Positions 273-53,345 of a stretch of DNA of 64,000 bases are shown piece by piece. The position numbers and the translations under genes are program-made. Under the pieces are notes generated by a model. That model saw only the letters and a list, made by a program, of their open reading frames with translations. It was not told the origin of the DNA and ran no database searches. Positions within the stretch are counted from its first letter, which is position 1; each line of letters starts with the position of its first letter. This DNA is from Candidatus Omnitrophota bacterium (lineage in GTDB: Bacteria; Omnitrophota; Gorgyraeia; Zapsychrales; Zapsychraceae): the NCBI GenBank assembly GCA_015233115.1, contig JADFYJ010000006.1, positions 65,801 to 129,800 on the forward strand. The letters are read 5' to 3'.

Positions 273-420
273 GTAGGGGCGATCTCCCGATCGCCCGCAC
301 TATAAAAGATTTATAAATTTAACATTCCAGGGGTTTTTGGTTTAGTTTCATTTAAGTAAAAAAAACGAAAATTTTGTAAGCGGGCGATCGGGAGATCGCC
401 CCTACGACCAAGGACGTAAT
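273..420. repeat. GC-hairpin repeat element. Two perfect inverted copies of GTAGGGGCGATCTCCCGATCGCCCGC (273-300 and 380-406) around an 80-bp AT-rich spacer, then the tail GACCAAGGACGTAAT.
   Basis: Exact reverse complements were read directly. The same unit recurs at 15731-15859 and 48719-48757. Confidence 0.8.
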
Positions 421-497
421 GTCCGCGTAGTACCAGGAGCTCCGCGAGTGGTGCAAAACTTTGTGCTCTCTACTTTTTTATCAAGAAAGGTTTTTTT

Positions 498-1694
498 ATG
501 CATGAATCAATGATTGAAGAAGCAAAACAAAAATTTGGGGCTTTACTTTTGGACCAGTGCAAACGGGTAGAGAAGATGAAGCAGAATGCTGAAAAAGTTG
601 ATTTTTCTAAACTTAAACCTATTGTAATAGGGTCTTGCTGGGGAGATGGCATCGGGGAAGTTATTTCAAAATTAAGCCAGGAAGTTCTGACGTTTGTTTT
701 AAAGGATGATATGAAGGCCGGACGAGTGGTGATCAAGGATATCGCGGGCTTGACCATAGAGAACCGAGTCAAACACATGAAAGCAATTCCCGATGCTGTT
801 TTAGAAGAAATTAAGTCATGTCACGTTATTTTAAAAGGCCCGACGACTACACCGCAGGCCGGAGATCCCTGGCCTAACATCGAAAGCGCGAATGTCGCCA
901 TGCGCCGCGCTTTAGATTTATTTGCGAATGTCCGGCCGGTAAAAATTCCGCAAATGGGAATTGATTGGTGTTTTTTTCGGGAGAATACTGAAGGGGCATA
1001 CGTGCTGGGATCAAAAGGTTTTGATGTCACCGAAGATATCAGTGTCGATTTTACCGTAGCTACGGAGCAAGGTTCAGAACGGATCATTCGGATGGGATTT
1101 GAATACGCGCGGATGAACGGAAAGACGCAAATTACGATTGTGACCAAGTCAAATATAATTAAAACCACTGACGGCCGTTTTTCTAAAGTGGCCAAACGTA
1201 TAGCGCAAGAATATCCCGGAATCAAAATGGAAGAATGGTATGTGGATATTATGTCCGCGAAATTGATTGATCCGGAACGGCAAAAAGATTTCCAAGTGAT
1301 TATTCTGCCGAATTTATACGGCGATATTTTAACGGATGAAGCCGCGCAGATTCAAGGCGGAGTAGGGACAGCGGGAAGCGCCAATATTGGAAATCGGTGG
1401 TCCATGTTTGAAGCCATTCATGGCAGTGCGCCGCGCATGGTTAAAGAAGGCAGAGCCAAGTATGCTGACCCTTGTTCCATGATCCGCGCCAGCGCAATGT
1501 TGTTACGTCATATCGGATATATGGAGCAAGCGGAAAAAATTGAAATGGCTTTGGATGTGTGCGGTCAGTTTGAAAAGAACATGGTCATAACCGGGCGGGA
1601 TACCGGAGTGACGGGTAAAGAATTTACCGAGTATGTGTTGTCATGGATTAATAATCCGAAGTTGAAGCAAGCGTGGATGGATGGAATCGCGTAG
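498..1694 (+). CDS. Isocitrate/isopropylmalate dehydrogenase family protein (NAD(P)-dependent beta-decarboxylating dehydrogenase).
   Basis: GDGIGEV nucleotide-binding motif and NLYGDILTDEAAQIQGGVGTAGSANIG family signature. The N-terminal 30-40 aa may be over-called; an alternative start is M27. Confidence 0.75.
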   Translation: MHESMIEEAKQKFGALLLDQCKRVEKMKQNAEKVDFSKLKPIVIGSCWGDGIGEVISKLSQEVLTFVLKDDMKAGRVVIKDIAGLTIENRVKHMKAIPDAVLEEIKSCHVILKGPTTTPQAGDPWPNIESANVAMRRALDLFANVRPVKIPQMGIDWCFFRENTEGAYVLGSKGFDVTEDISVDFTVATEQGSERIIRMGFEYARMNGKTQITIVTKSNIIKTTDGRFSKVAKRIAQEYPGIKMEEWYVDIMSAKLIDPERQKDFQVIILPNLYGDILTDEAAQIQGGVGTAGSANIGNRWSMFEAIHGSAPRMVKEGRAKYADPCSMIRASAMLLRHIGYMEQAEKIEMALDVCGQFEKNMVITGRDTGVTGKEFTEYVLSWINNPKLKQAWMDGIA

Positions 1695-1972
1695 AGTGAC
1701 AAAGTAACCGAGTAACAGAGTAACAGAGAAAATGCGATTGATGGTAAAGCGATGATGGCACAGCAATAATAAAACTTTGTTATTTGTTTTAAAATTTTTT
1801 GAAAATATATTTTTTAGTTATACTCGTTTTATTAAATTATTTTTTGCAACGCCACGTTTATGCTTTGTTTTATAAATTTAACGTTTTTGTGCTGTCACAA
1901 TATTACGTTGTTGCTTTGTATTTCTGTTACGCTGTTGCTTTGTTACTCTGTTACTCGGTTACTCTGTTACTA
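1694..1972. repeat. Intergenic palindromic element, GTAACNGA arm subfamily. Forward arm 1694-1728, core AAAATGCGATTGATG, reverse arm about 1908-1970.
   Basis: Tandem GTAACCGA/GTAACAGA units and their reverse complement TCTGTTAC/TCGGTTAC. Fills the whole idh-lipB intergenic space. Confidence 0.8.
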
Positions 1973-1978
1973 TAAATT

Positions 1979-2623
1979 ATGACAAATTATTTGTGCCAAT
2001 TCTTGGATTGGGGTTTGATTTCTTACCAGGATGCGTATCAGCGTCAGAAAGAATTGGTTGATAAAGTCAGCAGGAATGATCCGCAGAAATTAATAGTCTG
2101 CGAGCATCCGGCGGTTTTGACGTGCGGCCGGACATCCAAACCCGGCAATCTTCTGGTGAATGAAGAGATCCTTAAATCCCGGGGGATTGAGGTTCTTCGC
2201 GTTGACCGAGGCGGGGATATTACTCTGCACAGTCCGGGGCAAATGGTGATTTACCCGATATTTGATCTTAATTTTTATGGACGGGATCTGCATGTTTTTT
2301 TGAGAAAATTAGAGCAAGTAGTCATTGATTTATTAAGTGATTTTGATATAGTGGCTATAAGAATTCCCGGGAAGACGGGTGTATGGGTCGGCGGGAAAAA
2401 GATCGCGTCAATCGGTATCGGGGTTCGTAAATGGGTTTCTTTTCACGGCGTGGGTCTTAATATTGACACGGAATTATCTTTGTTTTCTGTGATGCGGCCC
2501 TGCGGACTTGATGTGGAAATGACTTCTTTGGCGCGGATTAAGGCAACATCAATTGATAAAATTAAACTTGTATCCCGTTTGAAAGAAAACTTTCGGCGGG
2601 AATTTAATTTAACATTTGGTTGA
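1979..2623 (+). CDS. lipB: Lipoyl(octanoyl) transferase LipB.
   Basis: RGGDITLHSPGQMVIYPI motif (LipB RGGxxTxHGPGQ), catalytic C/K context, about 214 aa. Confidence 0.85.
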   Translation: MTNYLCQFLDWGLISYQDAYQRQKELVDKVSRNDPQKLIVCEHPAVLTCGRTSKPGNLLVNEEILKSRGIEVLRVDRGGDITLHSPGQMVIYPIFDLNFYGRDLHVFLRKLEQVVIDLLSDFDIVAIRIPGKTGVWVGGKKIASIGIGVRKWVSFHGVGLNIDTELSLFSVMRPCGLDVEMTSLARIKATSIDKIKLVSRLKENFRREFNLTFG

Positions 2624-2626
2624 AAC

Positions 2627-2771
2627 GGTAATAGGTGAAAGGTGAGACGTGAAAGGTTAATTGTATTGTTCGCTGGTGCTCCAATGAAAAAACAATTGAT
2701 TTTAAAAAAGAATAATCCAAAATAATCAGCTAAACATTTTTTTACATTTCACTTTTCACATTTCACTTTTT
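2627..2771. repeat. Intergenic palindromic element, GTGAAAG arm subfamily. Forward GGTGAAAGGTGAGACGTGAAAGG, core AAAAAACAATTGATT, reverse CATTTCACTTTTCACATTTCAC.
   Basis: Inverted tandem heptamers flank an AT-rich spacer between lipB and the lipoyl-domain gene. Confidence 0.7.
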
Positions 2772-2788
2772 TCTTTTTAGGATAAGAT

Positions 2789-3040
2789 ATGTCAAAACAT
2801 ACATTATACGAATTAAAATTGCCCTCTTTGGGAGAAGGCATCAAATCGGCCACGGTCGTGGAATGGCTGGTCAAAGAGGGCGACATGGTTCAAGTTGACG
2901 ACGATCTGCTGGAGATTGCCACGGACAAAGCGACGTTCAATGTTCCGTCTGAGCATAAGGGACAATTGAAAAAAATAGCTGTAAAAGCAGGCGAAGACAT
3001 AGTGATCGGCGGGAAATTAGCGATCATTGAGGAGGCATAG
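2789..3040 (+). CDS. Stand-alone lipoyl-attachment domain protein (E2-type lipoyl domain, 83 aa).
   Basis: LPSLGEGI...EIATDKAT: lipoyl-lysine in a TDKA context. Immediately downstream of lipB. Confidence 0.6.
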   Translation: MSKHTLYELKLPSLGEGIKSATVVEWLVKEGDMVQVDDDLLEIATDKATFNVPSEHKGQLKKIAVKAGEDIVIGGKLAIIEEA

Positions 3041-3043
3041 ATC

Positions 3044-4177
3044 ATGACCGCGGTTGAAACAAAACGCAAACGTGTTTTATTAATGTATATCACCAAAGTA
3101 TCCGGCCATAGGCAGGCGACGATTGCGATTCAAAAATCTCTCAAAGCCATTGATCCGACGCTGGAAACGCCGGCGATTAATGGTTTTGGTTATACTTATC
3201 CCATCCTTGAAAAAATGGTCAATCAGGCCTATATGAGCGTGATCAAAACCACGCCTCAATTATGGGATTATTTATACGATAATCCGAAATTTTTTAAACG
3301 GTCGCAGAATATAAAAAAGTTTTTGTTTAAAAGCAGTCATGCCAAACTTGAGCGTTTATTTAAGCGGCATGATCCCAGTGTGGTGGTATGCACCCAAGCT
3401 TTCCCGTGCGGAATGGTCGCGGACTTTAAACGCCAGCACAATTTGGATTTCAAAATTGTCGGGGTATTAACGGATTTCGCGCCGCATTCTTATTGGATTA
3501 ATGACGGGGTGGATTATTATGTGGTGCCGTCTCAAGATTCTAAAGAGCGTTTTATGGCCAAAGGCGTCCCCGCGCCAATGATTAAAGTATACGGGATTCC
3601 GGTTAAGCATAAATTCGCGCAAAAGCATGAACAGCATACGGCGGCTCGCAACCTGGGATTAGATCCGTCCATTCCTTTGATTTTAGTGATGGGCGGAGGA
3701 CAAGGGTTGGGACCGATTAAAAAAATTGTTAAATCTTTGAGCAAAATTAATACAGCGGTTCAGATTGTGGTTTTGGCCGGTAATAACAAAAAGGTTATTG
3801 ATAAATTAAAAAAACTGGTTAAAAAATCTGAAAATAAAATTATGCCGATGGGTTTTTTAAAGAATGTGGATGAGTATATGGACGCGGCCTCAGTCATCAT
3901 CACGAAACCCGGCGGGATCACCACAGCTGAATCGCTGGTTAAGGGTTTGCCTATGGCGATCATTGATCCTTTGCCTGGCCAGGAAATGAGGAATACGGAT
4001 TTTTTAATTAAAAATGGCATCGCGATCCGTGTAGACAGCGCCAGTGATATTGGGGAAGAGATCGAAGTGTTATTGAAGACTCCGTCCCGGCTGGCCGCGA
4101 TGCGTAAAGCCGCGTTGGAATTTTCTTATCCTGATTCCTCCATGGATATCGCGCGTTTGATCATGGAACAACTGTAA
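3044..4177 (+). CDS. MGDG-synthase / MurG-like (GT28) glycosyltransferase, a diacylglycerol glycosyltransferase-like protein.
   Basis: N-terminal MGDG_synth-like region. C-terminal GT-B motif ITKPGGITTAESL...PGQE. Confidence 0.6.
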   Translation: MTAVETKRKRVLLMYITKVSGHRQATIAIQKSLKAIDPTLETPAINGFGYTYPILEKMVNQAYMSVIKTTPQLWDYLYDNPKFFKRSQNIKKFLFKSSHAKLERLFKRHDPSVVVCTQAFPCGMVADFKRQHNLDFKIVGVLTDFAPHSYWINDGVDYYVVPSQDSKERFMAKGVPAPMIKVYGIPVKHKFAQKHEQHTAARNLGLDPSIPLILVMGGGQGLGPIKKIVKSLSKINTAVQIVVLAGNNKKVIDKLKKLVKKSENKIMPMGFLKNVDEYMDAASVIITKPGGITTAESLVKGLPMAIIDPLPGQEMRNTDFLIKNGIAIRVDSASDIGEEIEVLLKTPSRLAAMRKAALEFSYPDSSMDIARLIMEQL

Positions 4178-4183
4178 AAAATC

Positions 4184-4317
4184 GGTTGATGGTTGTTGGT
4201 TTGTGGTTAAAACATTAGTTTTTTTTAAAAGCACAATGTCATTATATTATTGGTTTTTAGTTGTTGGTTAAATTATTCGTTTTGTCCAAAAACCAAAAAC
4301 AATCAACCATCAACCAT
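4184..4317. repeat. Intergenic palindromic element, GGTTGTTGG subfamily. Outer perfect 12-bp IR GGTTGATGGTTG / CAACCATCAACC; inner 68-bp unit 4251-4317.
   Basis: Inner unit GGTTTTTAGTTGTTGGTT...TTGTCCAAAAACCAAAAAC...CATCAACCAT is nearly identical to 6873-6940. Confidence 0.8.
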
Positions 4318-4334
4318 AATAATTTTTTAATACC

Positions 4335-5204
4335 ATGCTCAGATTTATATTTTTTAAATTTTTCAAATTTCTGGTCAATGTTCTTCCGTTAACATGGTCT
4401 TATAAAGCGGCGGAAGGGATAGCCAAAGTTTATTGTTTTTTTAAACGAACCGAGCAAGAGGCTGTTAAACGCAATCTCCTCGCCATTGATCCGGAGATGA
4501 AGAATTTAGACGCGGCATCCCGGGCCGTGTTTCAGAATTTTAGTTGTTATCTGGTCGAATTTTTAATGATGTTCCGGTTGGTTAATGATAAGGATTTGGG
4601 TCAGAGGTTTGAATTCCGGGGTTTTGAGCATATTGAGCAATATGTCAAAACAGGCAAGCCGGCGATTATATTAACGGCGCACATCGGGAATTGGGAATTG
4701 GGCGGCGCTCTGCTGGCTAAAAAAGGGTGCGCGGTTACGGCTGTGGCCTTACAGCACAAAGAATCATTAGTTAATAATTTTTTTGATCAGCAACGCTTGT
4801 TGTGCGGTATCGAAGTGGCGTCAACTGCTTACGCGGTCAAGGAGTGTTTGAAGGCTTTAAAAAACAACCGCATTGTCGCCATTGTCGGCGATAAGGATTT
4901 TACGGGAAGCGGCAGTCCGGCTGATTTGTTCGGGCACAAAATTGTTCTTCCTCGCGGCGCGGCATTGTTCGCCCAGCGTGCCCATGTTCCGGTTATCCCG
5001 ACATTTTTAATTAGGCAGGGGCAAGGGCATTTTGTTTTGCATGTTTATCCGCCGGTCACGCCTGAAGATATTAAACTTGAAAAAAATAAAAAATTCGGGG
5101 TTTATGAAGATTTAATTATCCATCAGTATACCGAGGCATTGGAAGACATTATTAAAAAATATCCATCGCAATGGATTGTTTTTAAGGAGTTTTGGCAATC
5201 ATGA
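4335..5204 (+). CDS. Lipid A biosynthesis lauroyl/myristoyl acyltransferase family protein (LpxL/HtrB-like).
   Basis: HIGNWE acyltransferase motif, family size, overlapping stop/start with the downstream GT2 gene. Confidence 0.7.
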   Translation: MLRFIFFKFFKFLVNVLPLTWSYKAAEGIAKVYCFFKRTEQEAVKRNLLAIDPEMKNLDAASRAVFQNFSCYLVEFLMMFRLVNDKDLGQRFEFRGFEHIEQYVKTGKPAIILTAHIGNWELGGALLAKKGCAVTAVALQHKESLVNNFFDQQRLLCGIEVASTAYAVKECLKALKNNRIVAIVGDKDFTGSGSPADLFGHKIVLPRGAALFAQRAHVPVIPTFLIRQGQGHFVLHVYPPVTPEDIKLEKNKKFGVYEDLIIHQYTEALEDIIKKYPSQWIVFKEFWQS

Positions 5205-5875
5205 GAGTTTGTATTTTGATCCCAGCTCATAATGAGATCAGAGCTATTGGTGTTTTGGTAACAACTTTACGGGCCCAAAATCTGGAAGTGTTGGTGGTTG
5301 ATGACGGGTCAACGGATGGCACATCAGACGCGGCTAAAAATGCCGGTGCAGTTGTGCTTCGCAATGAAGAATGCAAAGGCAAAGGATTTTCGCTCAGACA
5401 AGGATTTAATTGGGTTCTCAATCGTGGTTATCAGGGAGTGGTAACTATGGATGGCGACGGTCAGCATGATCCGGAGGATTTATCTAAATTTTTAGCTAAA
5501 GCTGAATCTAAAGAATGCGGGATTATCAATGGTGACCGCCTCTCGAATGCTAAGGGTATGCCATTACTGCGATATACTGTCAATTGCTTGATGTCATGGA
5601 TAATTTCATTGGTATGTAAACAAAAAATTGCTGATAGTCAATGCGGGTACCGGTATATATGTTGCGATGTCTTGAAATATTTCGAACTCAATACGGACGG
5701 ATTTGAAATTGAATCTGAACTTTTGATCAAGGCCGCCAGGAGGCGGATAAAAATTGACGCGGTCCCGGTCAAGACGATCTACGGCCAGGAACTTAGCAAA
5801 GTCCGTCCCGTCCGTGATACAATAAAATTCATCCAGTTTTTAACAAAACAATTAATAGGAGACAAAAGGCAATAA
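5201..5875 (+). CDS. Family 2 glycosyltransferase (DPM1/bactoprenol-glycosyltransferase-like).
   Basis: ILIPAHNE...VVDDGSTDGT...TMDGDGQHDP motifs. ATG at 5201 preferred over the TTG at 5192. Confidence 0.75.
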   Translation: MRVCILIPAHNEIRAIGVLVTTLRAQNLEVLVVDDGSTDGTSDAAKNAGAVVLRNEECKGKGFSLRQGFNWVLNRGYQGVVTMDGDGQHDPEDLSKFLAKAESKECGIINGDRLSNAKGMPLLRYTVNCLMSWIISLVCKQKIADSQCGYRYICCDVLKYFELNTDGFEIESELLIKAARRRIKIDAVPVKTIYGQELSKVRPVRDTIKFIQFLTKQLIGDKRQ

Positions 5876-5905
5876 GAGGGCATAGCCTATCGCCTGTTTT
5901 ATTAT

Positions 5906-6598
5906 ATGTCCAATCGTATTTTTACATTTTGTTTGATAAGTTCTTTGGTGATCCATATCGTTTTGATACTGGGGTTGAGCTGGCATATCCATTTGCTTTC
6001 TGTTCATCAGAAACAAGCTGTTGAAGTGACTTATAATGTGTCCCGGAATAAATCCAAAGCGATTATTGAAAAACAACTGGAAATGGCGAAAAAAAACTTT
6101 AAACCGGATCCTAAAAAAGATTTGGATATTCTTTCTAAAGATTCTTCCAAATTAGCTTTTGATAAAACTAGTTTTAAAAGTATCGAAAAAACTCCGACAG
6201 ATTTTAAACTGGACCACGATTTTAGTCATGTCACCCGGCACATGACAAAAGAAAAAGTATCCATTCCGCTTTTAGATTCCCAGGAAATTAGTAATCCTAA
6301 ATATCAGAATTATAATCAGGTGATACGCCAACGCATCAAAGAGCATGCATATTATTATGTGGATCATCCGGATTTTCGTTCAGGAGAAGTTTATTTGACT
6401 TTTGTGATTAATGGTCGCGGCGAATTAGCGGCAGTGCGGGTGATTGAATCCCGTACGCGGGCGAATGATTATTTAAAGACTATTGCCATGCAAAGTGTAA
6501 AAGATTCCGCTCCATTTCCGGCGTTCCCAACAGATTTGAAATATCCGGAATTGACGTTTAATGTGGTGATATCATTTGAAGTGGATGGACAGAAATAG
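5906..6598 (+). CDS. TonB-family energy transducer-like protein: N-terminal TM helix and TonB C-terminal domain.
   Basis: Hydrophobic N-terminus, a K/D/P-rich linker, and a C-terminal YYVDHP...GEVYLTFVINGRGEL...FPAFP TonB_C-like segment. Confidence 0.55.
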   Translation: MSNRIFTFCLISSLVIHIVLILGLSWHIHLLSVHQKQAVEVTYNVSRNKSKAIIEKQLEMAKKNFKPDPKKDLDILSKDSSKLAFDKTSFKSIEKTPTDFKLDHDFSHVTRHMTKEKVSIPLLDSQEISNPKYQNYNQVIRQRIKEHAYYYVDHPDFRSGEVYLTFVINGRGELAAVRVIESRTRANDYLKTIAMQSVKDSAPFPAFPTDLKYPELTFNVVISFEVDGQK

Positions 6599-6619
6599 GA
6601 TAATATTGAAAGGAGATAT

Positions 6620-6868
6620 ATGGAAATTGATTTTTTGAATTATGTTTTGAGTTTGGGATATCAAGCTATGGTTTTCTTAGGAGAAATACCTAATCCGTCG
6701 ACCAACAAAGAAGAAAAAAATTTGGATCAGGCGAAATTATTGATTGATACCTTGGTGATGTTGAAAGAAAAAACCCGGGGCAATCTTACTGAAGAAGAAG
6801 CGAATTTGTTAGAAAATTCACTCGCTGAATTGCAAATGAAGTACGTGGAGGCTGGAGCCAAAATATAA
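6620..6868 (+). CDS. DUF1844-family small protein.
   Basis: 82 aa; MEIDFLNYVLSLGYQAMVFLGEIPNP pattern typical of DUF1844. Confidence 0.5.
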   Translation: MEIDFLNYVLSLGYQAMVFLGEIPNPSTNKEEKNLDQAKLLIDTLVMLKEKTRGNLTEEEANLLENSLAELQMKYVEAGAKI

Positions 6869-6872
6869 AAGC

Positions 6873-6940
6873 GGTTTTTAGTTGTTGGTTGTTGAAAGTG
6901 TTTTTGTCCAAAAACCAAAAACTATAATCCATCAACCATG
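6873..6940. repeat. 68-bp GGTTGTTGG-subfamily repeat unit, near-copy of 4251-4317.
   Basis: GGTTTTTAGTTGTTGGTTGTTGAAAGTGTTTTTGTCCAAAAACCAAAAACTATAATCCATCAACCATG compared against 4251-4317. Confidence 0.8.
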
Positions 6941-6954
6941 AAAAGAGACAAGAC

Positions 6955-7392
6955 ATGAAAAGAATTCTTGTAATCAATGGACCGAATTTGAATTTGCTGG
7001 GCGAGCGGGAGACTGGTATTTACGGAAAAGTCTCGCTCGAAGATATTAATAAACTTCTTACTGTCGCAGCCAAAACGCATCAGGTATCTTTGGAGTTTTT
7101 CCAATCTAATCATGAAGGTGAAATTGTAGATAAAATTGGTCAAGTTAAAGCCGAAGGTTTTAGCGGCATCTTGATCAACCCCGCCGCTTACACTCATACC
7201 AGCATCGCGATCCGTGACGCGGTTGCTGCTGTTGTGATTCCTACTGTCGAAGTCCATTTATCCAATATCCATGCCCGGGAAGAATTTCGTCATAAATCGC
7301 TTATTGCACCTGTGGCACAAGGCCAAATCAGCGGTTTTGGCCCCCAAAGTTATGTCTTAGGTCTGCAAGCATTGGCAGGGATAATAAAATAA
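6955..7392 (+). CDS. aroQ: Type II 3-dehydroquinate dehydratase.
   Basis: [16 protein letters not shown]...[14 protein letters not shown] signature motifs; about 145 aa. Confidence 0.92.
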
Positions 7393-7425
7393 ATAGGTCT
7401 GTCCCTAATTATTGGAGCTAAACAT

Positions 7426-7923
7426 ATGAACAAAAAAAATGGCATTGTTTTACTTGGATTGCTCTTATCAGTTTCTTTGGCATGGGCACAAGCACAAAAT
7501 TTAGATTCCGCTGATACAAAAATTATCCTGGAGCGCAGAGGGTGCTTTGGGACTTGCCCTGCTTATAAATTAACCATTTATCCTGACGGGAAAATTAATT
7601 TTTTAGGAAAAGAATATGTGAAGGCCATGGGGCCGCATGTTAAAAGAATATCTTCCGATAAGCTGGCTCTGATATGGCGTGAACTGGAGAATACAAAATT
7701 TTTTGATTTGGATGGCAAATATGATTGTGAAGATGTGACAGATCAGGCGACAACTATAACAACGGTTATAAAAGACGGCAGTATAAAACAAATTGTCCAT
7801 TACCAGGGCTGTATGTCCGCGAATAAAAAAGAACTCTCTGCGTTGACTAAATTGGAAGATAAAATAGATAAGCTGGCAGGGATTGATGATTGGCTTTTAT
7901 ATGAAAAAAGAAAAAAGAAGTGA
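7426..7923 (+). CDS. Secreted or lipoprotein-like hypothetical protein with a C-x-G-x-C motif.
   Basis: Signal peptide MNKKNGIVLLGLLLSVSLAWAQA. No recognisable family. First gene of the putative inserted cassette. Confidence 0.45.
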   Translation: MNKKNGIVLLGLLLSVSLAWAQAQNLDSADTKIILERRGCFGTCPAYKLTIYPDGKINFLGKEYVKAMGPHVKRISSDKLALIWRELENTKFFDLDGKYDCEDVTDQATTITTVIKDGSIKQIVHYQGCMSANKKELSALTKLEDKIDKLAGIDDWLLYEKRKKK

Positions 7924-7940
7924 GAAGTAGATCCTTGATT

Positions 7941-7962
7941 GTGTACGGGATTTGTAGTACAC
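7941..7962. promoter_or_regulatory. Inverted repeat GTGTACgggatttgtaGTACAC upstream of relB, a candidate TA autoregulation operator.
   Basis: Palindrome lies 23 bp upstream of the antitoxin start codon. Confidence 0.4.
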
Positions 7963-7984
7963 TTTATTTGGAAAGGATAAAGAG

Positions 7985-8245
7985 ATGATAAAGCAATCAA
8001 GGGTTGAGGCCAGAGTCGCTTTGAAATTAAAAAATGAAGTCGGATCTGTATTAAAAAGACTGGACATTTCTGAATCGGAAGCGATTCGGATATATTTTAG
8101 GCAAATTGCTCTTACCAAAGGCATTCCTTTTGAAATAAAAATCCCTAATAAAGAAACGATCAGCGCGTTAAATGAAGTAACCACGGCTAAGTTAAGGGAA
8201 TTCAAAAGTTTTGATGAGTATCTTAAAGGTATCGATGCCGAATGA
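7985..8245 (+). CDS. RelB/DinJ-family antitoxin.
   Basis: 86 aa; ribbon-helix-helix-like N-terminus; overlaps the downstream RelE/YafQ toxin gene (ATGA). Confidence 0.65.
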   Translation: MIKQSRVEARVALKLKNEVGSVLKRLDISESEAIRIYFRQIALTKGIPFEIKIPNKETISALNEVTTAKLREFKSFDEYLKGIDAE

Positions 8246-8508
8246 GAATTATTTCTCCTACCAGACAATTTGACCGTGATTTAAAAAAATTATTAAAACG
8301 CAAAAAAGAAATATCAAAATTAAAAGCTGTGGTTGATTTGCTTTCGGGTGAAGGCCGACTGCCTTTAAAATATAAACCGCATGCATTAGTCGGTGATTGG
8401 ATCCCGTGTTGGGATTGTCATATAGAACCAGATTGGCTATTAATTTATCAAGTGACTGAGACTCACGTGTATTTATTCCGAATCGGTAGTCATTCAGATT
8501 TGTTTTAA
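8242..8508 (+). CDS. RelE/YafQ-family type II toxin (mRNA interferase).
   Basis: 88 aa; C-terminal HVYLFRIGSHSDLF resembles YafQ/RelE; 4-bp overlap with the antitoxin. Confidence 0.7.
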   Translation: MRIISPTRQFDRDLKKLLKRKKEISKLKAVVDLLSGEGRLPLKYKPHALVGDWIPCWDCHIEPDWLLIYQVTETHVYLFRIGSHSDLF

Positions 8509-8581
8509 TATATAGGGACAGTCCGTATTTATTCAAAGTTGTGTGTTAAGGCAGGAAGCGTTGGCAGGGATAATAAAATAA

Positions 8582-9595
8582 ATGAAATTAACTAAACGAT
8601 TTGACCATCAATTTTCAGACGTCATTAAGATGATTCACGCGTCTCGGTATAACGCCATCAAAAGCGTTAATGCTGAGCTTGTGAAGCTGTATTGGAGTGT
8701 GGGTGAGTACATCAGCAAGAAACTTGCTTCGGCTGAATGGGGAGATTCTGTTGTTGACAATCTTGCTGATTTTATCCAGGCTCACCACCCTGAATTTAAA
8801 GGTTTTACCCGTCGCGGTCTTTATCGGATGCGGCAGTTTTACGAATCCTATCGGGGTAGTAAATTTGTGTCAACACTGTTGACACAAATAAGCTGGTCCA
8901 GTCACTTGCATATACTTGCCAAAACTAAAACCATTGAAGAAAAAGAATTTTATCTGCGCCTCGCTATTAAAGAGAAATATTCTGTTCGTGAACTGGAGCG
9001 TCAGATTGATAGCGGCTATTTTGAGCGAGTGATGATCTCAAAGAAAAAAGTGTCACCACTGTTGACACAAATTCGTCCGGATGCTGTAGATGTGTTCAAA
9101 GATACCTATATCCTCGATTTTCTCAACCTCCCCGAAGCGCACAGCGAGAGCGATTTAAATCGAAGTATTGTTTCTAACCTTAAAGACTTTATTCTTGAAT
9201 TCGGCAAGGATTTTGCGTTTGTCGGCCAAGAATATCGTTTGCAAATAGGGAAAAGCGATTATTTCATTGATCTGCTATTCTTTCATCGTGGTCTGCGTTG
9301 CCTGGTTTTATTCGAGTTGAAAATAGACGATTTCAAGCCGGGATATATCGGTCAGTTGAATTTTTATCTTGAAGCGCTTGACCGTGATGTCAAAAAGCCG
9401 GATGAAAATCCCAGTGTAGGCATCATTCTGTGTAAGTCGAAAGATGATGAAGTGGTAGAATACGCGCTGAGCCGAAATCTTTCTCCAGCCTTGGTAGCTG
9501 AGTATAAAACAAAGCTTATTCCTAAAAAGATATTGGAAAAGAAATTGCATGAATATTACTTATTGGGCGAGTCTGTGAGAGAGAAGGAAAAATGA
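8582..9595 (+). CDS. YhcG-like PDDEXK nuclease (DUF1016 family).
   Basis: Internal duplicated LLTQI segments and a C-terminal D...EYK PD-(D/E)xK-like core; about 337 aa. Confidence 0.65.
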   Translation: MKLTKRFDHQFSDVIKMIHASRYNAIKSVNAELVKLYWSVGEYISKKLASAEWGDSVVDNLADFIQAHHPEFKGFTRRGLYRMRQFYESYRGSKFVSTLLTQISWSSHLHILAKTKTIEEKEFYLRLAIKEKYSVRELERQIDSGYFERVMISKKKVSPLLTQIRPDAVDVFKDTYILDFLNLPEAHSESDLNRSIVSNLKDFILEFGKDFAFVGQEYRLQIGKSDYFIDLLFFHRGLRCLVLFELKIDDFKPGYIGQLNFYLEALDRDVKKPDENPSVGIILCKSKDDEVVEYALSRNLSPALVAEYKTKLIPKKILEKKLHEYYLLGESVREKEK

Positions 9596-9643
9596 AGAGT
9601 TGGGGGCGAAATACTTACTGCGCGGAATTGCCGAGATAAGTCC

Positions 9644-9967
9644 GTGTCCCCGGAATACCATTCTTTGGAGGAATCAGGAATGCATACAAATGAATACTAT
9701 GCAGCTCTCGAAAAAGAATTGAAGGAAATCTTGCTCGTTGTCGGCGGCTCCTTGCCTGCCGATGATCAAGAAGAAATCACGGGATTTATTGCGCATGGGG
9801 AATATGGTTTGGCTTTTGAAACCTTGTGCCTGAGCTTTAAACTAAAATGCTCCAAAATGCCTTTGGAAGTGCGAGCCTCGGTTGAGCGGCTCGGCCGAAA
9901 GATGAAATTAGAACCTTCGTTGTGGGAAGAAATTATTTCTGAAAACAACTCAGGGACCTGTATTTGA
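9644..9967 (+). CDS. Hypothetical small protein, possibly immunity-protein-like. Local GC is visibly higher than surrounding sequence.
   Basis: 107 aa; no confident family. Last gene before the conserved pepP-efp-accBC block resumes. Confidence 0.35.
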   Translation: MSPEYHSLEESGMHTNEYYAALEKELKEILLVVGGSLPADDQEEITGFIAHGEYGLAFETLCLSFKLKCSKMPLEVRASVERLGRKMKLEPSLWEEIISENNSGTCI

Positions 9968-9998
9968 ATTCAGTTAATTCAGGACACAATACATAATT

Positions 9999-12065: not shown

Positions 12066-12135
12066 CCTTTGAATTTGCGATAAATTTTGGCAAATGCAAA
12101 ATTCAGGTTTAATCAAAAAGAGAGTTTTATAAAAT

Positions 12136-13488: not shown

Positions 13489-13510
13489 TGCGTCGAAGGA
13501 TTTCTAAAGC

Positions 13511-41107: not shown

Positions 41108-41114
41108 TGAAACA

Positions 41115-41279: not shown

Positions 41280-41305
41280 AAAACTATTAAATGAGGCATG
41301 CATCT

Positions 41306-43036: not shown

Positions 43037-43042
43037 GAAAAA

Positions 43043-43467
43043 GTAACCGAGTAACCGAGTAACAGAGTGACAAAGAAAAAACGATTAATGCTAAAAACGT
43101 CTATGGGAAAAAGGTTACAAGATATAGGCAAAAAAATATATTTGGATGATAGAAAACAAGCAATAGGAAAAATTGTATTTAATTTGTTAATTTTGTGATT
43201 TTGGTTTAAATTTTATATAAGATTATTAATTATTTATATTATTGTTTTTATCGGTTGTTTTGGGTTTTTATGGTTGCTATAATTTTTAAATTTTATTTTA
43301 GGTTTGTAAGGCTATTTTTTTAATTTTTGGGTTATTGATAACCTTTCACTTTGTTGCTTTTTGAGGGGATTTTTGTAATTTTTTAAAGCTTTATTTTTTT
43401 TTGTTTTTTTAAAGTTTTATTATAAATTTTGCTCTGTTACTCGGTTACTCGGTTACTTTGTTACTCT
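43043..43467. repeat. Intergenic palindromic element, GTAACNGA subfamily, with a long (about 350 bp) AT-rich spacer. Forward arm 43043-43075, core AAAAAACGATTAATGC, reverse arm 43428-43467.
   Basis: GTAACCGAGTAACCGAGTAACAGAGTGACAAAG versus its inverse. Occupies the entire guaA-dnaE intergenic region. Confidence 0.8.
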
Positions 43468-43489
43468 TTTACGAGCTGCCCATTTTAAT

Positions 43490-46400
43490 ATGTCCAATTT
43501 CGTCCATCTTCATGTCCACACCCAATATAGTCTTCTCGACGGTGCTTGTCGGGTAGATGACATTATGCGTAAAGCTGTTGAATATCAGATGCCAGCTGTG
43601 GCCATGACGGATCATGGCAACATGTTCGGCGCTCTGGATTTTTATTTAGCGGCTAAGAAGAAAAATATTAAGCCTATCTTGGGCTGCGAAGGATATGTCG
43701 TAAAAAAAGGCAGCCGGTTTGACCGCTCCAATGAACAACGGGGGAATTTGTCGCATCTCGTCCTGTTCGCCAAAAATAATCAAGGGTATCACAATCTCAT
43801 TAAATTAGTTTCGCATGGTTATCTGGACGGATTTTATTATCATCCGCGCATGGATAAAGAATTGCTGGCTCAGCATTCAGAAGGATTGATCGCCTCATCC
43901 GCGTGTTTAAAAGGGGAAATCGCGCAATGCATCAGAGACGGCAATTTTAATTCCGCGTTAAAAATCGCGGATGAAATGCAATCATTATTCGGACGGGGAA
44001 ATTTTTATCTTGAACTCATGGACCATGGGATTTCCGAACAAATGGTGGTGAACCGGGAAATTTTAAAAATCGCCAAAACTTTGGATATACCGGTGATCGC
44101 GACCAATGATGTGCATTATATTGAGCAGAGTCAATCCCGCGCGCATGACGCGCTGTTATGTATCCAAACGCAAACCACTCTCGATGATCCCAAGCGGATG
44201 CGCATGTCGTCCGACCAGTTTTATTTCAAAAGTCCGGATGAAATGTTTTATCTTTTTAAGGAAGTTCCAGAGGCATTGTCGAATACGTTAAAGATCGCGG
44301 AGCAATGCGCGGTTGATTTTAAATTTGGTGAATATCATCTGCCTGTTTTTACCCCGCCTGAAGGCAAGACTCAATCTCAATATATCCGGGAATTATGTGA
44401 ACAAGGGATGGTTCGCCGTTATCCTAACGCGACACCGGAATTGAAAGAGCGTTTAGATTATGAATTACGGGTTATTGAAAAAATGGGATTCATTCCATAT
44501 TTTTTAATTGTCTGGGATTTTATCGCGTATGCCAAGAGTCAGGGAATTCCGGTTGGTCCAGGCCGCGGTTCTGCCGCCGGAAGTATTATCAGTTATCTGC
44601 TGGGCATTACAGATTTGGATCCGATTAAATACGGTCTTATCTTTGAACGGTTTATGAATCCTGACCGGAAAGGGATGCCGGATATTGATATCGATTTTTG
44701 CTTCGAACGCAGGCAGGAAGTTATTGACTATGTGAACCGCAAGTATGGCAGGGAAAATGTTGCCCAAATTATCACGTTCGGAACTATGAAAGCGAAAGCT
44801 GTGATTCGTGACGTGGGACGGGCTTTTGGCGTCCCTTACTCGGATGTGGACCGGATCGCGAAATTAGTGCCGAACGAATTAGGGATCACGCTTGATCAGG
44901 CTTTGGAAAAAGAACCGAAATTAAAAGAGCTTTGTGAGACGGACCGGGCTGCCGCGGATATTATGGAGATTGCTAAAGTGCTGGAAGGATTGAACCGTCA
45001 CGCCGGAATGCACGCGGCAGGAGTCGTGATCGCGGATAAACCATTGATGGAATATGTGCCGTTGTATAAAACGGCTGATGACCAGATTACGACAGGGTTT
45101 GAAAAAGATTTTGTGGAGAAGATCGGCCTCTTAAAAATGGATTTTCTGGGGCTAAAGACTCTGACGCTTATTCATGACGCTTTGCGGATTATCAAAGAAC
45201 GGAAAAAACTGGATATCAATATTCTTAATATTCCGCTGGATGACAAGAAAACTTTTCAGCTATTGTGTGCGGGAAACGCGTTTGGAGTGTTTCAGTTGGA
45301 AAGCGCGGGTATGCGTGATTTGTTGCGCAAATCTCAACCGGATCAGTTCGAGGATATCATCGCTATTGAAGCGCTTTACCGTCCTGGTCCTATGGGCAGC
45401 GGCATGCTGGATGACTTTGTGAAACGTAAACGCGGGGAAATGTCTTTTCAATATGATCACCCCAAGATGGAGCCGATCCTGAAAGACACTTACGGCATCA
45501 TGGTCTATCAAGAACAGGTTATGAAAATTCCAGTCGCGCTGGCCAATTTTACCATGACTCAGGCAGACCATTTACGCCGGGCTATGAGCAAAAAAGACCA
45601 GGGTGTTATGCAGGACATGCGTAAATCTTTTGTTGAGGGATGCCAGACCCACAGTCAGATTCCGCCGGAAAAAGCGGAACGTTTATTTGATCTGATTGAC
45701 CATTTTTCCGGATATGGTTTTAACCGAAGCCATTCCGCGACTTATGCTTTGATCTCTTATCAGACGGCTTATTTGAAGGCCAATTATCCGGTTGAATTTA
45801 TGTGTGCTTTGCTTAACAGCGAAATTGCGAACACGGATAAAATCGTGGAATACGTCAAAGAAACTGACGCTATGGGAATTGAAGTCCTGCCTCCGGATGT
45901 TAATGAGAGTCAGAAACGGTTTAGTGTGATCAATGAAAAAGCCATCCGTTTTGGATTGTTAGCCATAAAAAATGTCGGAGGGACAGCTATTGACTCTTTG
46001 ATTGAAAACCGGGGCAGCGGGTACAAGACACTTTTTCAATTATGTGAAAAGGCTGATTTGCGTTTAGTCAACAGGAAGGTATTGGAAAGTCTCATTAAAG
46101 CCGGGGCTTTGGATTGTTTAAAAATATTCCGTTCCCAGCTTATGGCTGTGTTGGATCGTCATTTGGAACTGGCGGGAAAGAATCAGAAAGAAAAATCCAG
46201 CGGCCAGGTTTCGTTTTTTGATATTTTGGGAAGTGATAACAGTTTTAATAATGATGTGGGAAAAATTCCTGATATCCGTGAATGGGACAAGAATCAAATG
46301 CTGGCTTTTGAAAAAGAAATTTTGGGCTTTTACGTGAGCGGACATCCTTTGATGCAGTATCAGGTTGAAATACAAGAGTTTACGGGAATGAACACCAAGA

Positions 46401-47320: not shown

Positions 47321-47390
47321 TAAACAACCACAAATTTACAAAATTTCAATCCAAAAACCAACAACCAAAAACCATTAACCAATCAAAATT
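47321..47390. repeat. Solo reverse-type GGTTGTTGG-subfamily arm (CCAAAAACCAACAACCAAAAACC...).
   Basis: Matches the right arms of 4184-4317, 6873-6940 and 36618-36702. Confidence 0.55.
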
Positions 47391-48718: not shown

Positions 48719-48757
48719 TGTTGTAGGGGCGATCTCCTGATCGCCCGAACCATAAAA
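48719..48757. repeat. Solo GC-hairpin unit GTTGTAGGGGCGATCTCCTGATCGCCCGAACCATAAAAG.
   Basis: About 90% identical to 271-308, including the ATAAAAG tail; begins 12 bp after the hisS stop. Confidence 0.75.
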
Positions 48758-50903: not shown

Positions 50904-50915
50904 ACTTGGAGGCTC

Positions 50916-51869
50916 ATGGAACGCAATCTCATTTTTGAAAGTAATTATGATCTTCAGGCGATATTTGGAAAATATGATAAGAATTTGATTTTGATTGAAA
51001 AAGAATTAAACGTCAAGATTTCTCGTCAGAATGAGGGTCTTAAGATTATTGGCGATGAGAAACAGGTGGAAAAATCCTGCCAGTTCTTTGAGTATTTATT
51101 CGGCATAGTTAAAAGTGGTGTCAGCATCAAGACTCGCGATATTGCTTATGCTCTCCGCATGGTTAAAGGCGACGGCGCTGTTGATTTTAAAAAATTGGCC
51201 AAAGGACAGATTGATGTTTCGGTTAAGGGACAGTTGGTCATGCCCAAGACCAAAGGTCAGTTTGAATATGTGGAAGCCATTAAGCAAAATGATATTGTGT
51301 TCGGTATTGGACCGGCAGGCACGGGTAAAACCTACTTGGCTATGGCCATGGCTGTTAACGCGTTTAAAAAAGGCTTAGTCCGCCGTATTGTATTGACCCG
51401 CCCGGCTATTGAAGCCGGCGAAAGTTTAGGATTTTTACCCGGCGATATGGTTGAAAAAGTTTCCCCGTATCTGCGTCCGTTATACGACGCGCTGTATGAC
51501 ATGATGGAAGGGGATAAGGTTGAAGAATTGACTGAGCAGGGTATCATTGAAGTCGCGCCTTTGGCTTTTATGCGGGGACGCACCTTGAACGACGCGTTTG
51601 TTATTTTGGACGAGGCTCAGAATACCACTCCTTACCAGATGAAAATGTTTCTGACCCGTCTGGGTTTTGATTCCAAGACCGTTATTACCGGGGATCCGAC
51701 GCAAAGCGATCTTCCTAAAGGAATCCCTAATGGTTTATCAGATGCTCAAAAAGTTTTAAAAAGCATTGAGGGCATTAAATTCGTTCCTTTGACCGCGGAA
51801 GACGTGGTCAGGCATGAATTAGTGCAGAAGATCATTGAGGCATACGAACATGACCATTCCCGAGCATAA
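50916..51869 (+). CDS. phoH: PhoH-family ATPase.
   Basis: GIGPAGTGKTYLAMA Walker A, DEAQN Walker B; 317 aa. Confidence 0.9.
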   Translation: MERNLIFESNYDLQAIFGKYDKNLILIEKELNVKISRQNEGLKIIGDEKQVEKSCQFFEYLFGIVKSGVSIKTRDIAYALRMVKGDGAVDFKKLAKGQIDVSVKGQLVMPKTKGQFEYVEAIKQNDIVFGIGPAGTGKTYLAMAMAVNAFKKGLVRRIVLTRPAIEAGESLGFLPGDMVEKVSPYLRPLYDALYDMMEGDKVEELTEQGIIEVAPLAFMRGRTLNDAFVILDEAQNTTPYQMKMFLTRLGFDSKTVITGDPTQSDLPKGIPNGLSDAQKVLKSIEGIKFVPLTAEDVVRHELVQKIIEAYEHDHSRA

Positions 51870-53211
51870 AAGCGACAAGGAAAATTTTTCCGGGCCTTTG
51901 ACGGGGTTTTCGTTTTTTGTCTTATTTACTTTTTTTTGCTGGAAAATCGGTTTTCCTTTAAGCATCCCGATTTTATATTTCATCGTCGCGATTTATCTTA
52001 ATTACTTCCATAAAGCCACCACGAAATTGTTCCTCAATTTGGGATTGCTCCTGGCATTATTAATGTTTGTCACGGATTTCATCAGCCACTATACCCAGTT
52101 GTCCGGTTATTATGTTCCGGTCGCGGGATTCTCTATGCTGGTGATTTTGCTGTTTAATGACATCCAATTGACTTTTTTGATAACTTTATTGAGCAGTATG
52201 ACCGCCAGCTTGATCATGGGTGGTAATTTTAATATGATGGTGATCTTTTTAGTGAGCGGGCTGACCGCGGCCATGATCGTTAAAGGTGCCCGCACCCGCG
52301 GCCACTTGATTGGCGCCGGAATCATGGTCAGCGCGGCAGGAGCCATGAGTTTGTTTATTACCGGTTGTGGACTGGAACAGTTTATAACGCAGGATTTTCT
52401 TAATAGTAAATTATATCCTCTGGTATGGAATGGTTTGATATCCGCGGCTATGGTAGCGGCCACACTCAAAATTTTTGAGACTATGTTTGGGGTACTGACC
52501 AATTACAGCCTTTTTGAACTGTCCGATTCCAATCAGCCGCTTTTAAAACGTTTAATCATGGAAGCGCCGGGAACCTATCATCATTCGTTGGTCGTCGGTA
52601 ATTTGGCTGAGGCAGCCGCGGATGAAATTGGCGCGAATCCCTTGCTGGCCAGAGTCGGCGCTTATTATCATGATGCCGGCAAAATAATTAAAGCGGATTA
52701 CTTCGCGGAAAATCAGTTTAATACCCCAAGCAATAAACATGATTTTATCGAGCCTACCATGAGCCGTTTGGTGATTTTAAACCACGTCAAAGAAGGCGTT
52801 GAAATAGCTAAAAAATATAAACTGAACCCCCGTCTGGTTGATTTTATCACCGAACATCATGGTACCAGCCTGGTCCATTTTTTTTATCAGCGTGCCCTGG
52901 AATCTGCTGAGGAAGGGGAAGTGGTTAAGGAAGAAGATTACCGTTATCCCGGCCCTAAACCGCAAAGCCCTGAAACCGCGATCTGCATGCTGGCCGATTC
53001 CGTGGAAGGAGCGGTTCGCTCTGTGGATGATCCTAATCCGGCTAGAATTGAAGAAACAGTTAAGAAAGTGGTTAATAATAAATTCATCGACGGACAATTA
53101 GATGAATGCACCTTGACCTTACAGCAAATCGATAAAATTTCCAAGACGTTTACGCGTATTTTATCAGCTATGCACCACGCTCGTGTTAGGTATCCTGATA
53201 AGAAAACGTAA
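51850..53211 (+). CDS. 7TM-receptor with intracellular HD hydrolase (YqfF/PgpH-like).
   Basis: Seven N-terminal TM helices, C-terminal HD domain (HHSLVVGNLAE...YYHDAGK). Start at 51835 or 51850; overlaps the phoH 3' end. Confidence 0.75.
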   Translation: MTIPEHKSDKENFSGPLTGFSFFVLFTFFCWKIGFPLSIPILYFIVAIYLNYFHKATTKLFLNLGLLLALLMFVTDFISHYTQLSGYYVPVAGFSMLVILLFNDIQLTFLITLLSSMTASLIMGGNFNMMVIFLVSGLTAAMIVKGARTRGHLIGAGIMVSAAGAMSLFITGCGLEQFITQDFLNSKLYPLVWNGLISAAMVAATLKIFETMFGVLTNYSLFELSDSNQPLLKRLIMEAPGTYHHSLVVGNLAEAAADEIGANPLLARVGAYYHDAGKIIKADYFAENQFNTPSNKHDFIEPTMSRLVILNHVKEGVEIAKKYKLNPRLVDFITEHHGTSLVHFFYQRALESAEEGEVVKEEDYRYPGPKPQSPETAICMLADSVEGAVRSVDDPNPARIEETVKKVVNNKFIDGQLDECTLTLQQIDKISKTFTRILSAMHHARVRYPDKKT

Positions 53212-53270
53212 CAACGTGCGCCGTTCGCGGGAGCTCACGGCACTACTCGGACATTGCGTCCTCGGTCGCA

Positions 53271-53345
53271 GAGTAACCGAGTAACAGAGTAACAGAGTCT
53301 AATCAAAAAAAAGCAAAACGCGATAAGCAATAAAATAAAAAATTG
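53271..53345. repeat. Forward-type GTAACNGA arm (GAGTAACCGAGTAACAGAGTAACAGAGT) plus an A-rich core, with no reverse partner.
   Basis: Same units as the other GTAACNGA-subfamily forward arms; preceded by a GC-rich stretch containing CGCGGGAGCTC. Confidence 0.6.

Follow-up and report, generated by a model that had tools for sequence, protein, structure and literature searches.

We analyzed a 64-kb stretch (the window) of one metagenome-assembled Candidatus Omnitrophota genome, in which nearly every long gap between genes is filled by one family of long imperfect palindromes whose arms are tandem repeats. Omnitrophota are uncultured, very small and probably host-dependent, and to our knowledge nothing is known of their transcript organization. 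The window has a GC content of 0.40, its GC skew is positive throughout, and almost all of its genes lie on the plus strand. Housekeeping genes predominate: icd, lipB, a lipid A acyltransferase gene, aroQ, efp-accB-accC, an asp23-like gene, pfk (product on record as MBF0478755.1), gmhA and thiE, together with tRNA-Gly, aroB, uvrB, coaX, groES-groEL, guaB-guaA, dnaE, hup, hisS, aspS and phoH-ybeY. Within this stretch, to which all of our within-genome counts refer, we identified 12 complete or nearly complete elements, 5 solo arms, 2 repetitive extragenic palindromic (REP) doublets, one of them nested in an element, and 1 REP singlet. The density of elements is about one per 3 kb.

The elements have one order of parts in common. 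A left arm of tandem 7- or 8-mers is followed by an A-run and the core AAAARCGATTG, by an AT-rich loop of 30 to 360 nt that is full of T-runs, by a further T-run and finally by an arm that is the reverse complement of the first. The A-run plus CGATTG-N-TG-AAA forms a sub-terminal module adjoining one arm, and runs of T6 to T8 are enriched 10- to 20-fold in the loops. Tandem Repeats Finder reported every arm as a tandem array, with period 8 only for AGTAACNG (the GTAAC arms) and period 7 for GTATGTR, GGTTGTT, AATAGGC, TGAAAGG and CCAAAAA. From the upstream stop codon to the left arm there are 0 to 10 nt, or about 25 nt in the case of groES, and uvrB has its stop codon within the arm. The distance from the right arm to the downstream start codon is 7 to 20 nt, with groEL at 49 nt. 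Of the genes downstream of elements, about half are without a Shine-Dalgarno sequence. The copies are as follows.

1692 to 1974, plus strand: complete GTAACNGA (octamer) element in the icd/lipB gap; inverted repeat of 45 nt, 84% complementary; period 8; fold z = -6.8; core variant AAATGCGATTG at 1730-1740; right arm longer and degenerate.
2621 to 2770, plus strand: complete TGAAAGG (heptamer) element between lipB and a lipoyl-domain open reading frame (ORF; 2789-3040, Pfam); tandem repeats at 2621-2657 and 2739-2770; core variant AAAAACAATTG at 2688-2698.
4184 to 4315, minus strand: complete GGTTGTT (heptamer) element in reverse orientation, upstream of the gene for the lipid A acyltransferase; 25-nt inverted repeat with 88% complementarity; core-like ACAAAACGAAT on the minus strand; matches the 36618 element reversed.
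6866 to 6940, minus strand: partial GGTTGTT copy upstream of aroQ, equal to the right two-thirds of the 4184 element (blastn, 92% over 38 nt to the intergenic region at 4178; tandem repeats).
14486 to 14662, plus strand: complete GTAACNGA element between the asp23-like gene and pfk; core at 14513-14523.
15700 to 15911, plus strand: complete AATAGGC (heptamer) element between pfk and gmhA; holds a nested REP doublet (15734-15828), in the loop of which lies the core (15790-15800).
18058 to 18223, plus strand: complete GTATGTR (heptamer) element between tRNA-Gly(CCC) and an M23 peptidase gene; core at 18089-18099.
25477 to 25697, plus strand: complete GTATGTR element; the gene downstream codes for an M50-like peptidase and probably starts at the ATG near 25711; core at 25513-25523.
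35239 to 35390, plus strand: complete GTAACNGA element between uvrB and coaX; core at 35271-35281.
36618 to 36706, plus strand: short GGTTGTT/CCAAAAA element between groES (36300-36593) and groEL (36750-38402); core variant AAAAAACGGATG from 36649.
41114 to 41277, plus strand: complete GTATGTR element between guaB and guaA; core at 41167-41177.
43038 to 43472, plus strand: complete GTAACNGA element between guaA and dnaE; loop of about 350 nt; core at 43077-43087; includes a 28-bp perfect inverted repeat.
5882 to 5895, plus strand: solo reverse-type arm fragment ATAGCCTATCGCCT of the AATAGGC family, 10 nt ahead of a start codon.
29579 to 29604, plus strand: solo reverse-type heptamer arm (GCTATAT/GCATGTA-like) at the edge of the only minus-strand block.
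32714 to 32752, plus strand: solo reverse-type GTTAC arm preceded by a T-run, upstream of AGGAGG and an ATG at 32779.
47351 to 47382, plus strand: solo reverse-type CCAAAAA/CCAACAA arm, past the terminator of the HU gene and before hisS.
53269 to 53298, plus strand: solo forward GTAACNGA arm with a degenerate A-rich core, between an HD-domain gene and ybeY.

At uvrB, the last ~8 codons and the stop (…VKKSNRVTE-stop) come from the left arm, at 35239-35264. Hence, insertion there replaced the native C-terminal end or the stop codon.

An inverted-repeat search recovered at least 12 copies, complete or partial, with arms of 25 to 45 nt that are 77 to 100% complementary. The paired repeats bracket the intergenic regions at 1692-1736/1930-1974, 4184-4208/4291-4315, 14486-14517/14621-14652, 15700-15724/15887-15911, 18058-18091/18190-18223, 25477-25514/25660-25697, 35239-35274/35355-35390, 41134-41170/41241-41277 and 43038-43080/43427-43469. 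The arm pattern GTAACNRAGTRAC matched 23 times (0.01 expected), always between genes or at the extreme end of one, the single gene-end case being the array that provides the last codons of uvrB; GTATGTNGTATG matched 18 times (0.58 expected), and both patterns are restricted to intergenic regions apart from that same array. The core, searched as AAAARCGATTD, occurs 9 times where 1.43 are expected, a count reached in none of 100 shuffles. Seven of the nine are on the plus strand, of which six immediately follow the 3' end of a left tandem-repeat arm and the seventh, at 15790, is inside the nested REP doublet. In the window, the 8-mers AAAAACGA and AAAAAACG are each limited to 6 intergenic regions. 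For comparison we used 80 stretches from relatives (L001-L080; 1.24 Mb in total), in which long inverted repeats occur at 1.13 per 100 kb against 21.9 in the window; for those with periodic arms the figures are 0.24 and 14.1.

These results uphold the central claim of the first-pass annotation, that an arm-core-spacer-inverted-arm construct recurs at about 18 intergenic loci: the inverted repeats were found where it had placed them, the arm and core motifs are far above chance and confined to gaps and one gene end, and the tally given above agrees with its number. Several details have to be adjusted. The arms, given as tandem 6- to 8-mers, are tandem, but only the GTAAC arms have period 8 and the other families are heptamers. 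The core does recur, with those listed at 1731, 2690 and 36651 being variants. The arrays at 32711 and 47321 belong to the arm families but are reverse-type solo arms beside start codons, not full elements. Grouping 4184, 6873 and 36618 was sound as to family, although the first two are inverted relative to the third. The reverse-type ATAGGC solo placed at about 5876-5893 is real, being a 14-nt exact match, at 5882-5895, to the right arm of the 15700 element.

Do related genomes carry the elements at the same junctions? The gene order asp23/pfk/gmhA is kept in about 80 relatives, whose spacers at these junctions measure 10 to 30 nt. There the asp23/pfk spacer has a median of 22 nt (78 relatives), against 201 nt here, and the pfk/gmhA spacer a median of 9.5 nt, against 229 nt here. 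Judged by PFK and GroEL, the closest relatives are nDJH6bin14 (88% PFK identity, a contig of 7.7 kb) and L201, a further stretch that is syntenic with the window from aroB to aspS at 53 to 83% amino-acid identity. Elements are absent in L201 at uvrB/coaX, groES/groEL, guaB/guaA and hisS/aspS. Since the orthologous junctions are compact, the elements are lineage-specific insertions and not ancestral spacers. The comparison establishes that insertion has occurred into very short spacers of housekeeping genes, operon spacers included. The core motif has 24 matches in the 1.24 Mb of relatives, none of which adjoins a tandem-repeat arm; the core is private to this lineage. Elsewhere in the relatives, GGTTGTT is the only one of the arm families to recur, in L024.

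Comparison of the copies with one another indicates how they spread. Pairwise identity is 0.8 to 0.88 over arms plus core and 0 to 0.5 over loops. The intergenic copies E18048 and E41108, which hold the elements at 18058 and 41114, are alignable end to end with many indels; their left arms are 94% and their right arms 97% identical, whereas each copy is only 78 to 81% self-complementary. The same arm mismatches are therefore present in both copies, which argues for duplication of an already imperfect palindrome and not for compensatory evolution or local slippage. On these alignments, the family has evidently spread by such duplication. The 4184 and 6866 copies are inverted relative to that at 36618, and the occurrence of both orientations and of solo arms fits a mobile or recombining repeat. 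Two known kinds of site were considered and rejected. Integron attC sites do not fit housekeeping genes in a phylum-conserved order, the lack of an integrase in the scanned ORFs, or arms that are tandem repeats unlike attC; invertons do not fit the lack of a recombinase gene nearby.

Several elements are located inside operons (groES/groEL, guaB/guaA and asp23/pfk/gmhA), and the pfk junctions are operon-tight across the phylum. At groES/groEL, the only promoter region bearing a controlling inverted repeat of chaperone expression (CIRCE) is that upstream of groES. Such sites imply co-transcription of the elements with the flanking genes, which operon conservation makes very probable. When the 12 elements were folded as RNA, the minimum-energy prediction for each of them had the arms as its outer stem, with z values between -2.2 and -12. 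Elements occur in both orientations, with 10 of 12 cores in the sense direction (p = 0.039).

Scans of 1-20000 and 24001-44000 revealed no consistent sigma-70 promoter or intrinsic terminator in the loops. In 1-20000 neither was enriched (promoters, 47 observed and 48.3 in shuffles; terminators, 20 and 20.6); in 24001-44000 there were 72 promoter-like matches against a shuffle mean of 53.1 (standard deviation, 8.3), scattered and not consistently in loops. Canonical promoters at 39814 (TTGACA-17-TATAGT), 26365 and 36194 (with CIRCE) and GC-rich terminators at 28948-28979 and 38426-38468 sit in gaps that have no complete element. The last of these, the groEL terminator hairpin, is enclosed by a second inverted repeat with arms of 25 to 30 nt (38402-38506), the outer arm of which, AAAAAAATGGTGTCTGCTCTCGACT, is similar to the opening codons of guaB at 39899 (ATGGTGTCTGATCTCGATCTG). 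We rejected the elements as intrinsic terminators, given that the T-run is inside the stem, before the right arm, and that terminator-like matches are not enriched and lie outside elements. A small peptide starting in the core (TTG/ATG) was also rejected: the ORFs have 2 to 11 codons (longer in the loop at 43037) and no Shine-Dalgarno sequence, and their similarity merely mirrors the nucleotide motif. Inspection of the core by eye for IHF, CRP and sigma-54 sites yielded only partial half-sites. In Rfam searches, tRNA-Gly alone passed the gathering threshold, and no element matched at E <= 1.

The reading that we favor, with a probability of roughly 0.55, is that these are a lineage-amplified foldback family resembling miniature inverted-repeat transposable elements (MITEs), with arms of the kind known from short tandemly repeated repetitive (STRR) DNA, which inserted at gene junctions, within operons too, and would be co-transcribed to yield long mRNA hairpins that set the stop and start codons next to each other. 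In the mRNA, the arms would pair into a stem of 25 to 45 bp and loop out the interior, bringing the upstream stop codon beside the downstream ribosome-binding site. This geometry may be what makes insertions tolerable at these positions. The stem would also be a plausible substrate for double-strand-specific processing of the RNase III type, or a stabilizer of the mRNA, and the elements may thus act at the RNA level.

As MITEs are, the elements are short, non-coding and multi-copy and have terminal inverted repeats. A number of observations nevertheless weigh against this reading. The interiors are not common to the copies, given the identities above, and the loops of copies with near-identical arms are far too diverged for recent copy-and-paste. 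At least 5 arm families have one core in common, which is unusual for MITEs, whose termini normally define the family. No consistent direct repeat marking a target-site duplication is visible at the arm ends, where there is no close empty site to compare and where the flanks are A-runs and T-runs that prolong the palindrome. An autonomous, transposase-coding partner with the same termini was not found in the window, L001-L080 or L201, and among the window ORFs that were scanned Pfam detected no transposase, integrase or REP-associated tyrosine transposase (RAYT). On the sense strand there are more G.U than A.C mismatches (16:7 in the window, 21:11 in relatives; combined 37:18, p = 0.014), but once the null takes strand composition into account the excess is gone (p = 0.41). 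Finally, transcription is deduced from gene order, folding is predicted, and the copy counts come from a single 64-kb window of one metagenome-assembled genome. The first-pass annotation had offered a selected long hairpin, as RNA or cruciform, or a MITE family with simple-repeat termini. That frame was right, in view of the outer stem found in 12 of 12 elements and of dispersed, family-structured copies absent at orthologous junctions. A cruciform would be unlikely with loops of 30 to 360 nt, however, and the complementarity of arms cannot serve as a sign of selection when copies have their arm mismatches in common.

Hairpins of comparable build are present in other genomes. When the threshold is relaxed, the relatives have an inverted repeat in 28 of their 363 intergenic regions, against 2 in shuffled sequence, and 9 of the 28 have periodic arms. 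L024 has 4 heptamer-arm hairpins in 7 intergenic regions, with loops of 12 to 16 nt. At the asp23/pfk junction, periodic-arm hairpins of unrelated sequence occur in L012, L024, L067, L071 and L079 and a long non-periodic hairpin in L035; L201 has a heptamer-arm hairpin at guaA/dnaE. The heptamer-arm hairpins of Omnitrophota lie at 2011-2103, 5379-5491, 9910-10000 and 13851-13946 of L024, at 2642-2818 and 8273-8369 of L040, in L071 and L079, and at 14235-14338 of L201. Their arm units include GTTGTTR, TAGCGNT, GACCAAA, AAGTCGT and GCCTTAA, and their loops are mostly short. Some arm families reappear at different junctions in distant genomes. Beyond the phylum, (GTAACCGA)n arrays, some of them facing inverted arrays, occur in unrelated metagenomic genomes of GC 0.37 to 0.72, and some of these loci have the layout stop-arm-loop-arm'-ATG (for example in L120, L139 and L112). 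In two soil contigs (GC 0.61), a compact tandem-octamer hairpin lies between cysS and ruvA (L120, ~1430-1560; L139, ~8730-8860; minus-strand coordinates), arranged as TAG-(GGTTGCTG)n-short loop-(CAACCGAG/GTAACCGA)n-ATG, and in L112 (GGTTACNG)n stands opposite (GTAACCGA)n. Tandem-unit hairpins are thus widespread. The window stands out for how densely its elements are placed, for the length of their AT-rich loops and for a core that is private.

One metagenome scan with GTAACCGAGTAACMGAGTRAC matched mostly an unrelated family of ~45-kb human-gut contigs and generic (GTAACCGA)n arrays; the core was not in the 60 nt after each match, no search dedicated to it having been made there. In the gut contigs (L082, L087 and many of L089-L200; for example L082, 442-560), GTAACCGAGTAACCGAGTAAC is accompanied by an inverted GTTAC array 88 nt downstream. 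These arrays have a highly conserved context, look like iterons at a plasmid or phage origin and are unrelated to Omnitrophota.

Could the hairpins instead be kept by the host? They may be RNA cis-elements selected for polycistronic mRNA processing, 3'-end protection or translation coupling, the main rival reading, which we take seriously but consider doubtful. A sequence-specific factor would then read arms and core, the arm families would serve as 'addresses', and duplication would account for origin only. The much better conservation of arms and core than of loops is what such a role predicts; this conservation is also expected of a master lineage with intact termini producing the copies, and it would fit host constraint and such a lineage equally. 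The siting at operon junctions of essential genes, the sense bias of the cores, the 4 right-arm solos that adjoin start codons, and the recurrence of unrelated hairpins at asp23/pfk (and of one at guaA/dnaE in L201) all point toward the host, and these very roles have been suggested for the STRR hairpins of cyanobacteria (PMC2670836). Against this, most relatives have no hairpin at these junctions, two copies are inverted, base composition accounts for the G.U excess, and there are no compensatory changes beyond what copying explains. A broader version strikes us as unlikely: that inverted heptamer- and octamer-array hairpins are a general, overlooked class of intercistronic RNA, spanning Omnitrophota, cyanobacteria (STRR) and unrelated metagenomic genomes, and read here by a dedicated factor that would organize polycistronic processing or coupled translation, with the arm families and the AAAARCGATTG core as recognition modules, so that the elements would not be merely selfish.

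Alternatively, each junction might have acquired its hairpin independently and without mobility, replication slippage making the tandem 7- and 8-mers and intrastrand template switching inverting them. According to Mrazek et al. 2007, as summarized in PMC4679880, no long simple repeat is commoner in bacteria than the heptamer. Unrelated arm sequences at the same junction in different lineages, and the (GTAACCGA)n arrays in genomes of widely differing GC content, some paired and inverted, would be natural products of such a process. In the window, however, unit order, arm mismatches and the 11-nt core recur at 4 + 3 + 4 loci, a pattern that independent slippage cannot produce, and we regard local generation as improbable.

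The prospect that the elements act as DNA seems slimmer still. Here arms and phased A/T tracts would bind a nucleoid-associated, replication or topology protein, with orientation set by the direction of replication, much as has been proposed for REPs and bacterial interspersed mosaic elements with gyrase and IHF. All but two cores are on the strand with positive GC skew, T6 to T8 runs are concentrated in the loops, and elements co-occur and nest with REP doublets. Yet neither a candidate protein nor a known binding motif came to light, element spacing is irregular and tracks gene boundaries, and transcription and replication are co-oriented here, which makes their effects inseparable. Regulatory cassettes, whether a loop promoter or terminator insulated by arms or an invertible promoter with arms as recombination sites, are scarcely credible, since AT-rich loops and 10-of-12 sigma-70 matches in two of them (18101-18128 and 35317-35346) stand against the scan results above, the canonical promoters and terminators in gaps without complete elements, the lack of a recombinase gene nearby, and junctions (groES/groEL and guaB/guaA) that normally need no internal promoter.

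Returning to the foldback family, in form it most resembles the cyanobacterial STRR hairpins, described around 1990, and in behavior the transcribed MITEs (Correia, ERIC) and the foldback elements of eukaryotes. Correia/NEMIS of Neisseria and ERIC/IRU of enterobacteria are small non-coding MITEs that have terminal inverted repeats, are often located within transcription units and give long RNA hairpins. Ours are likewise small, dispersed, intergenic and non-coding with inverted termini. Theirs, however, have unique termini and interiors that are conserved, and Correia elements duplicate a TA target, whereas ours have tandem arms and unconserved interiors. Eukaryotic foldback (FB) transposons have long inverted termini made of short tandem repeats, variable arm lengths and heterogeneous or unrelated central loops; they are kilobase-scale, some carry a transposase, and no homology is implied.

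In the STRR precedent, 7-bp repeats make up a hairpin in the hupS/hupL gap; its function is unknown, and roles in transcript stability or translational coupling have been proposed (PMC2670836). The likeness lies in intergenic tandem 7-nt units, in inverted arrays that form a hairpin between co-transcribed genes (co-transcription here resting on operon conservation), and in unit sequences that vary among lineages. Omnitrophota are not heterocystous cyanobacteria, however, the unit sequences differ and one family is octameric, and here there are also a shared core, AT-rich loops that reach ~360 nt and one element about every 3 kb; our elements are an analog of STRR hairpins, not members. The TAACTGA repeats of Beggiatoaceae, cyanobacteria and Bacteroidetes are direct sense arrays ending a few nucleotides before start codons, with 1 inverted pair among 170 sets (PMC4679880). 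They too are stop-containing tandem units at gene boundaries, often without a Shine-Dalgarno sequence (PMC4679880), and (G)TAAC(N)GA resembles TAACTGA. Our unit is instead the 8-mer GTAACNGA, with sense arrays following stop codons and reverse-complement arrays preceding start codons. We found no description of such elements in Omnitrophota in the literature. A family built modularly from variable tandem-repeat arms and a shared core, which fills nearly every long intergenic gap and sits in essential operons, offers a handle on mRNA processing and genome dynamics in Omnitrophota and an independent comparator for the cyanobacterial STRR hairpins. If it is only selfish, it shows how operons tolerate foldback insertions and supplies useful strain-level markers.

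The GC hairpins of the window are a second co-resident family, classical GTAG-tagged REP doublets, distinct from the tandem-repeat elements. A GTAG REP is a 20- to 40-bp imperfect palindrome with an unpaired GTAG at one end, often in close inverted pairs (PMC3733652). The unit GTAG + GGGCGATC-tccc-GATCGCCC, an 8-bp stem with a 4-nt loop after the tag, was read directly at 273, 386 (minus), 15734, 15809 (minus) and 48723, forming inverted doublets at 270-408 and 15734-15828. Two of these loci stand outside the elements listed above.

270 to 408, plus strand: inverted doublet of GTAG-tagged REPs, GTAG + GGGCGATC-tccc-GATCGCCC, with GGTTTTTGGTTT...AAAAAAAACGA in its loop; inverted repeat of 29 nt, 97% complementary; fold z = -12.2.
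48723 to 48745, plus strand: single GTAG-tagged REP between hisS and aspS.

The tag, the internal palindrome and the inverted doublets are features of the GC-hairpin loci only; the tandem-repeat arms have neither a GTAG tag nor an internal palindrome. The GC hairpin, which the first-pass annotation had treated as part of its construct, is therefore present as a separate family. Its statement that no named element could be recognized was too strong, in that the GC hairpin fits the GTAG REP (PMC3733652) and heptamer hairpin arms have a precedent in STRR (PMC2670836). No RAYT or Y1_Tnp domain was detected by Pfam in the scanned ORFs of the window, and similar GTAGGGGCG palindromes occur in relatives L024 and L079. 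The doublet at 15734-15828 is nested in the AATAGGC-arm element and has the shared core AAAAACGATTG in its loop, and the loop module GTTTTTGGTTT...AAAAACGA is present within both doublets. Different arm types thus have one interior module in common. A further module of ~55 nt, CGACCRAGGACGYAATGTCCG...GAGCTCC...GGYGCA, adjoins the REP doublets and a solo GTAAC arm (413-470, plus; 15846-15861, plus, partial; 53224-53280, minus). It has no Rfam match; its two full copies differ by paired changes (ACCA..TGGT versus GCCG..CGGC), which suggests a small structured element.

The co-directional housekeeping array is broken by small toxin-antitoxin-like modules at 7924-8581, 26335-27040, 28990-29600 (minus strand) and 63133-63732. 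Among them, 26642-27040 is a PIN/VapC gene and 63133-63732 encodes a zeta-toxin domain; the paired small ORFs at ~8010-8570 and ~29000-29600 (minus strand) are toxin-antitoxin-like by eye only. A solo arm adjoins the minus-strand module. Giant proteins are a known trait of Omnitrophota, and a 2696-amino-acid ORF at 54964-63054 is without a Pfam domain at E <= 1e-5. The predicted thiE ORF (17350-17985) overlaps the first bases of tRNA-Gly(CCC) (17976-18047).

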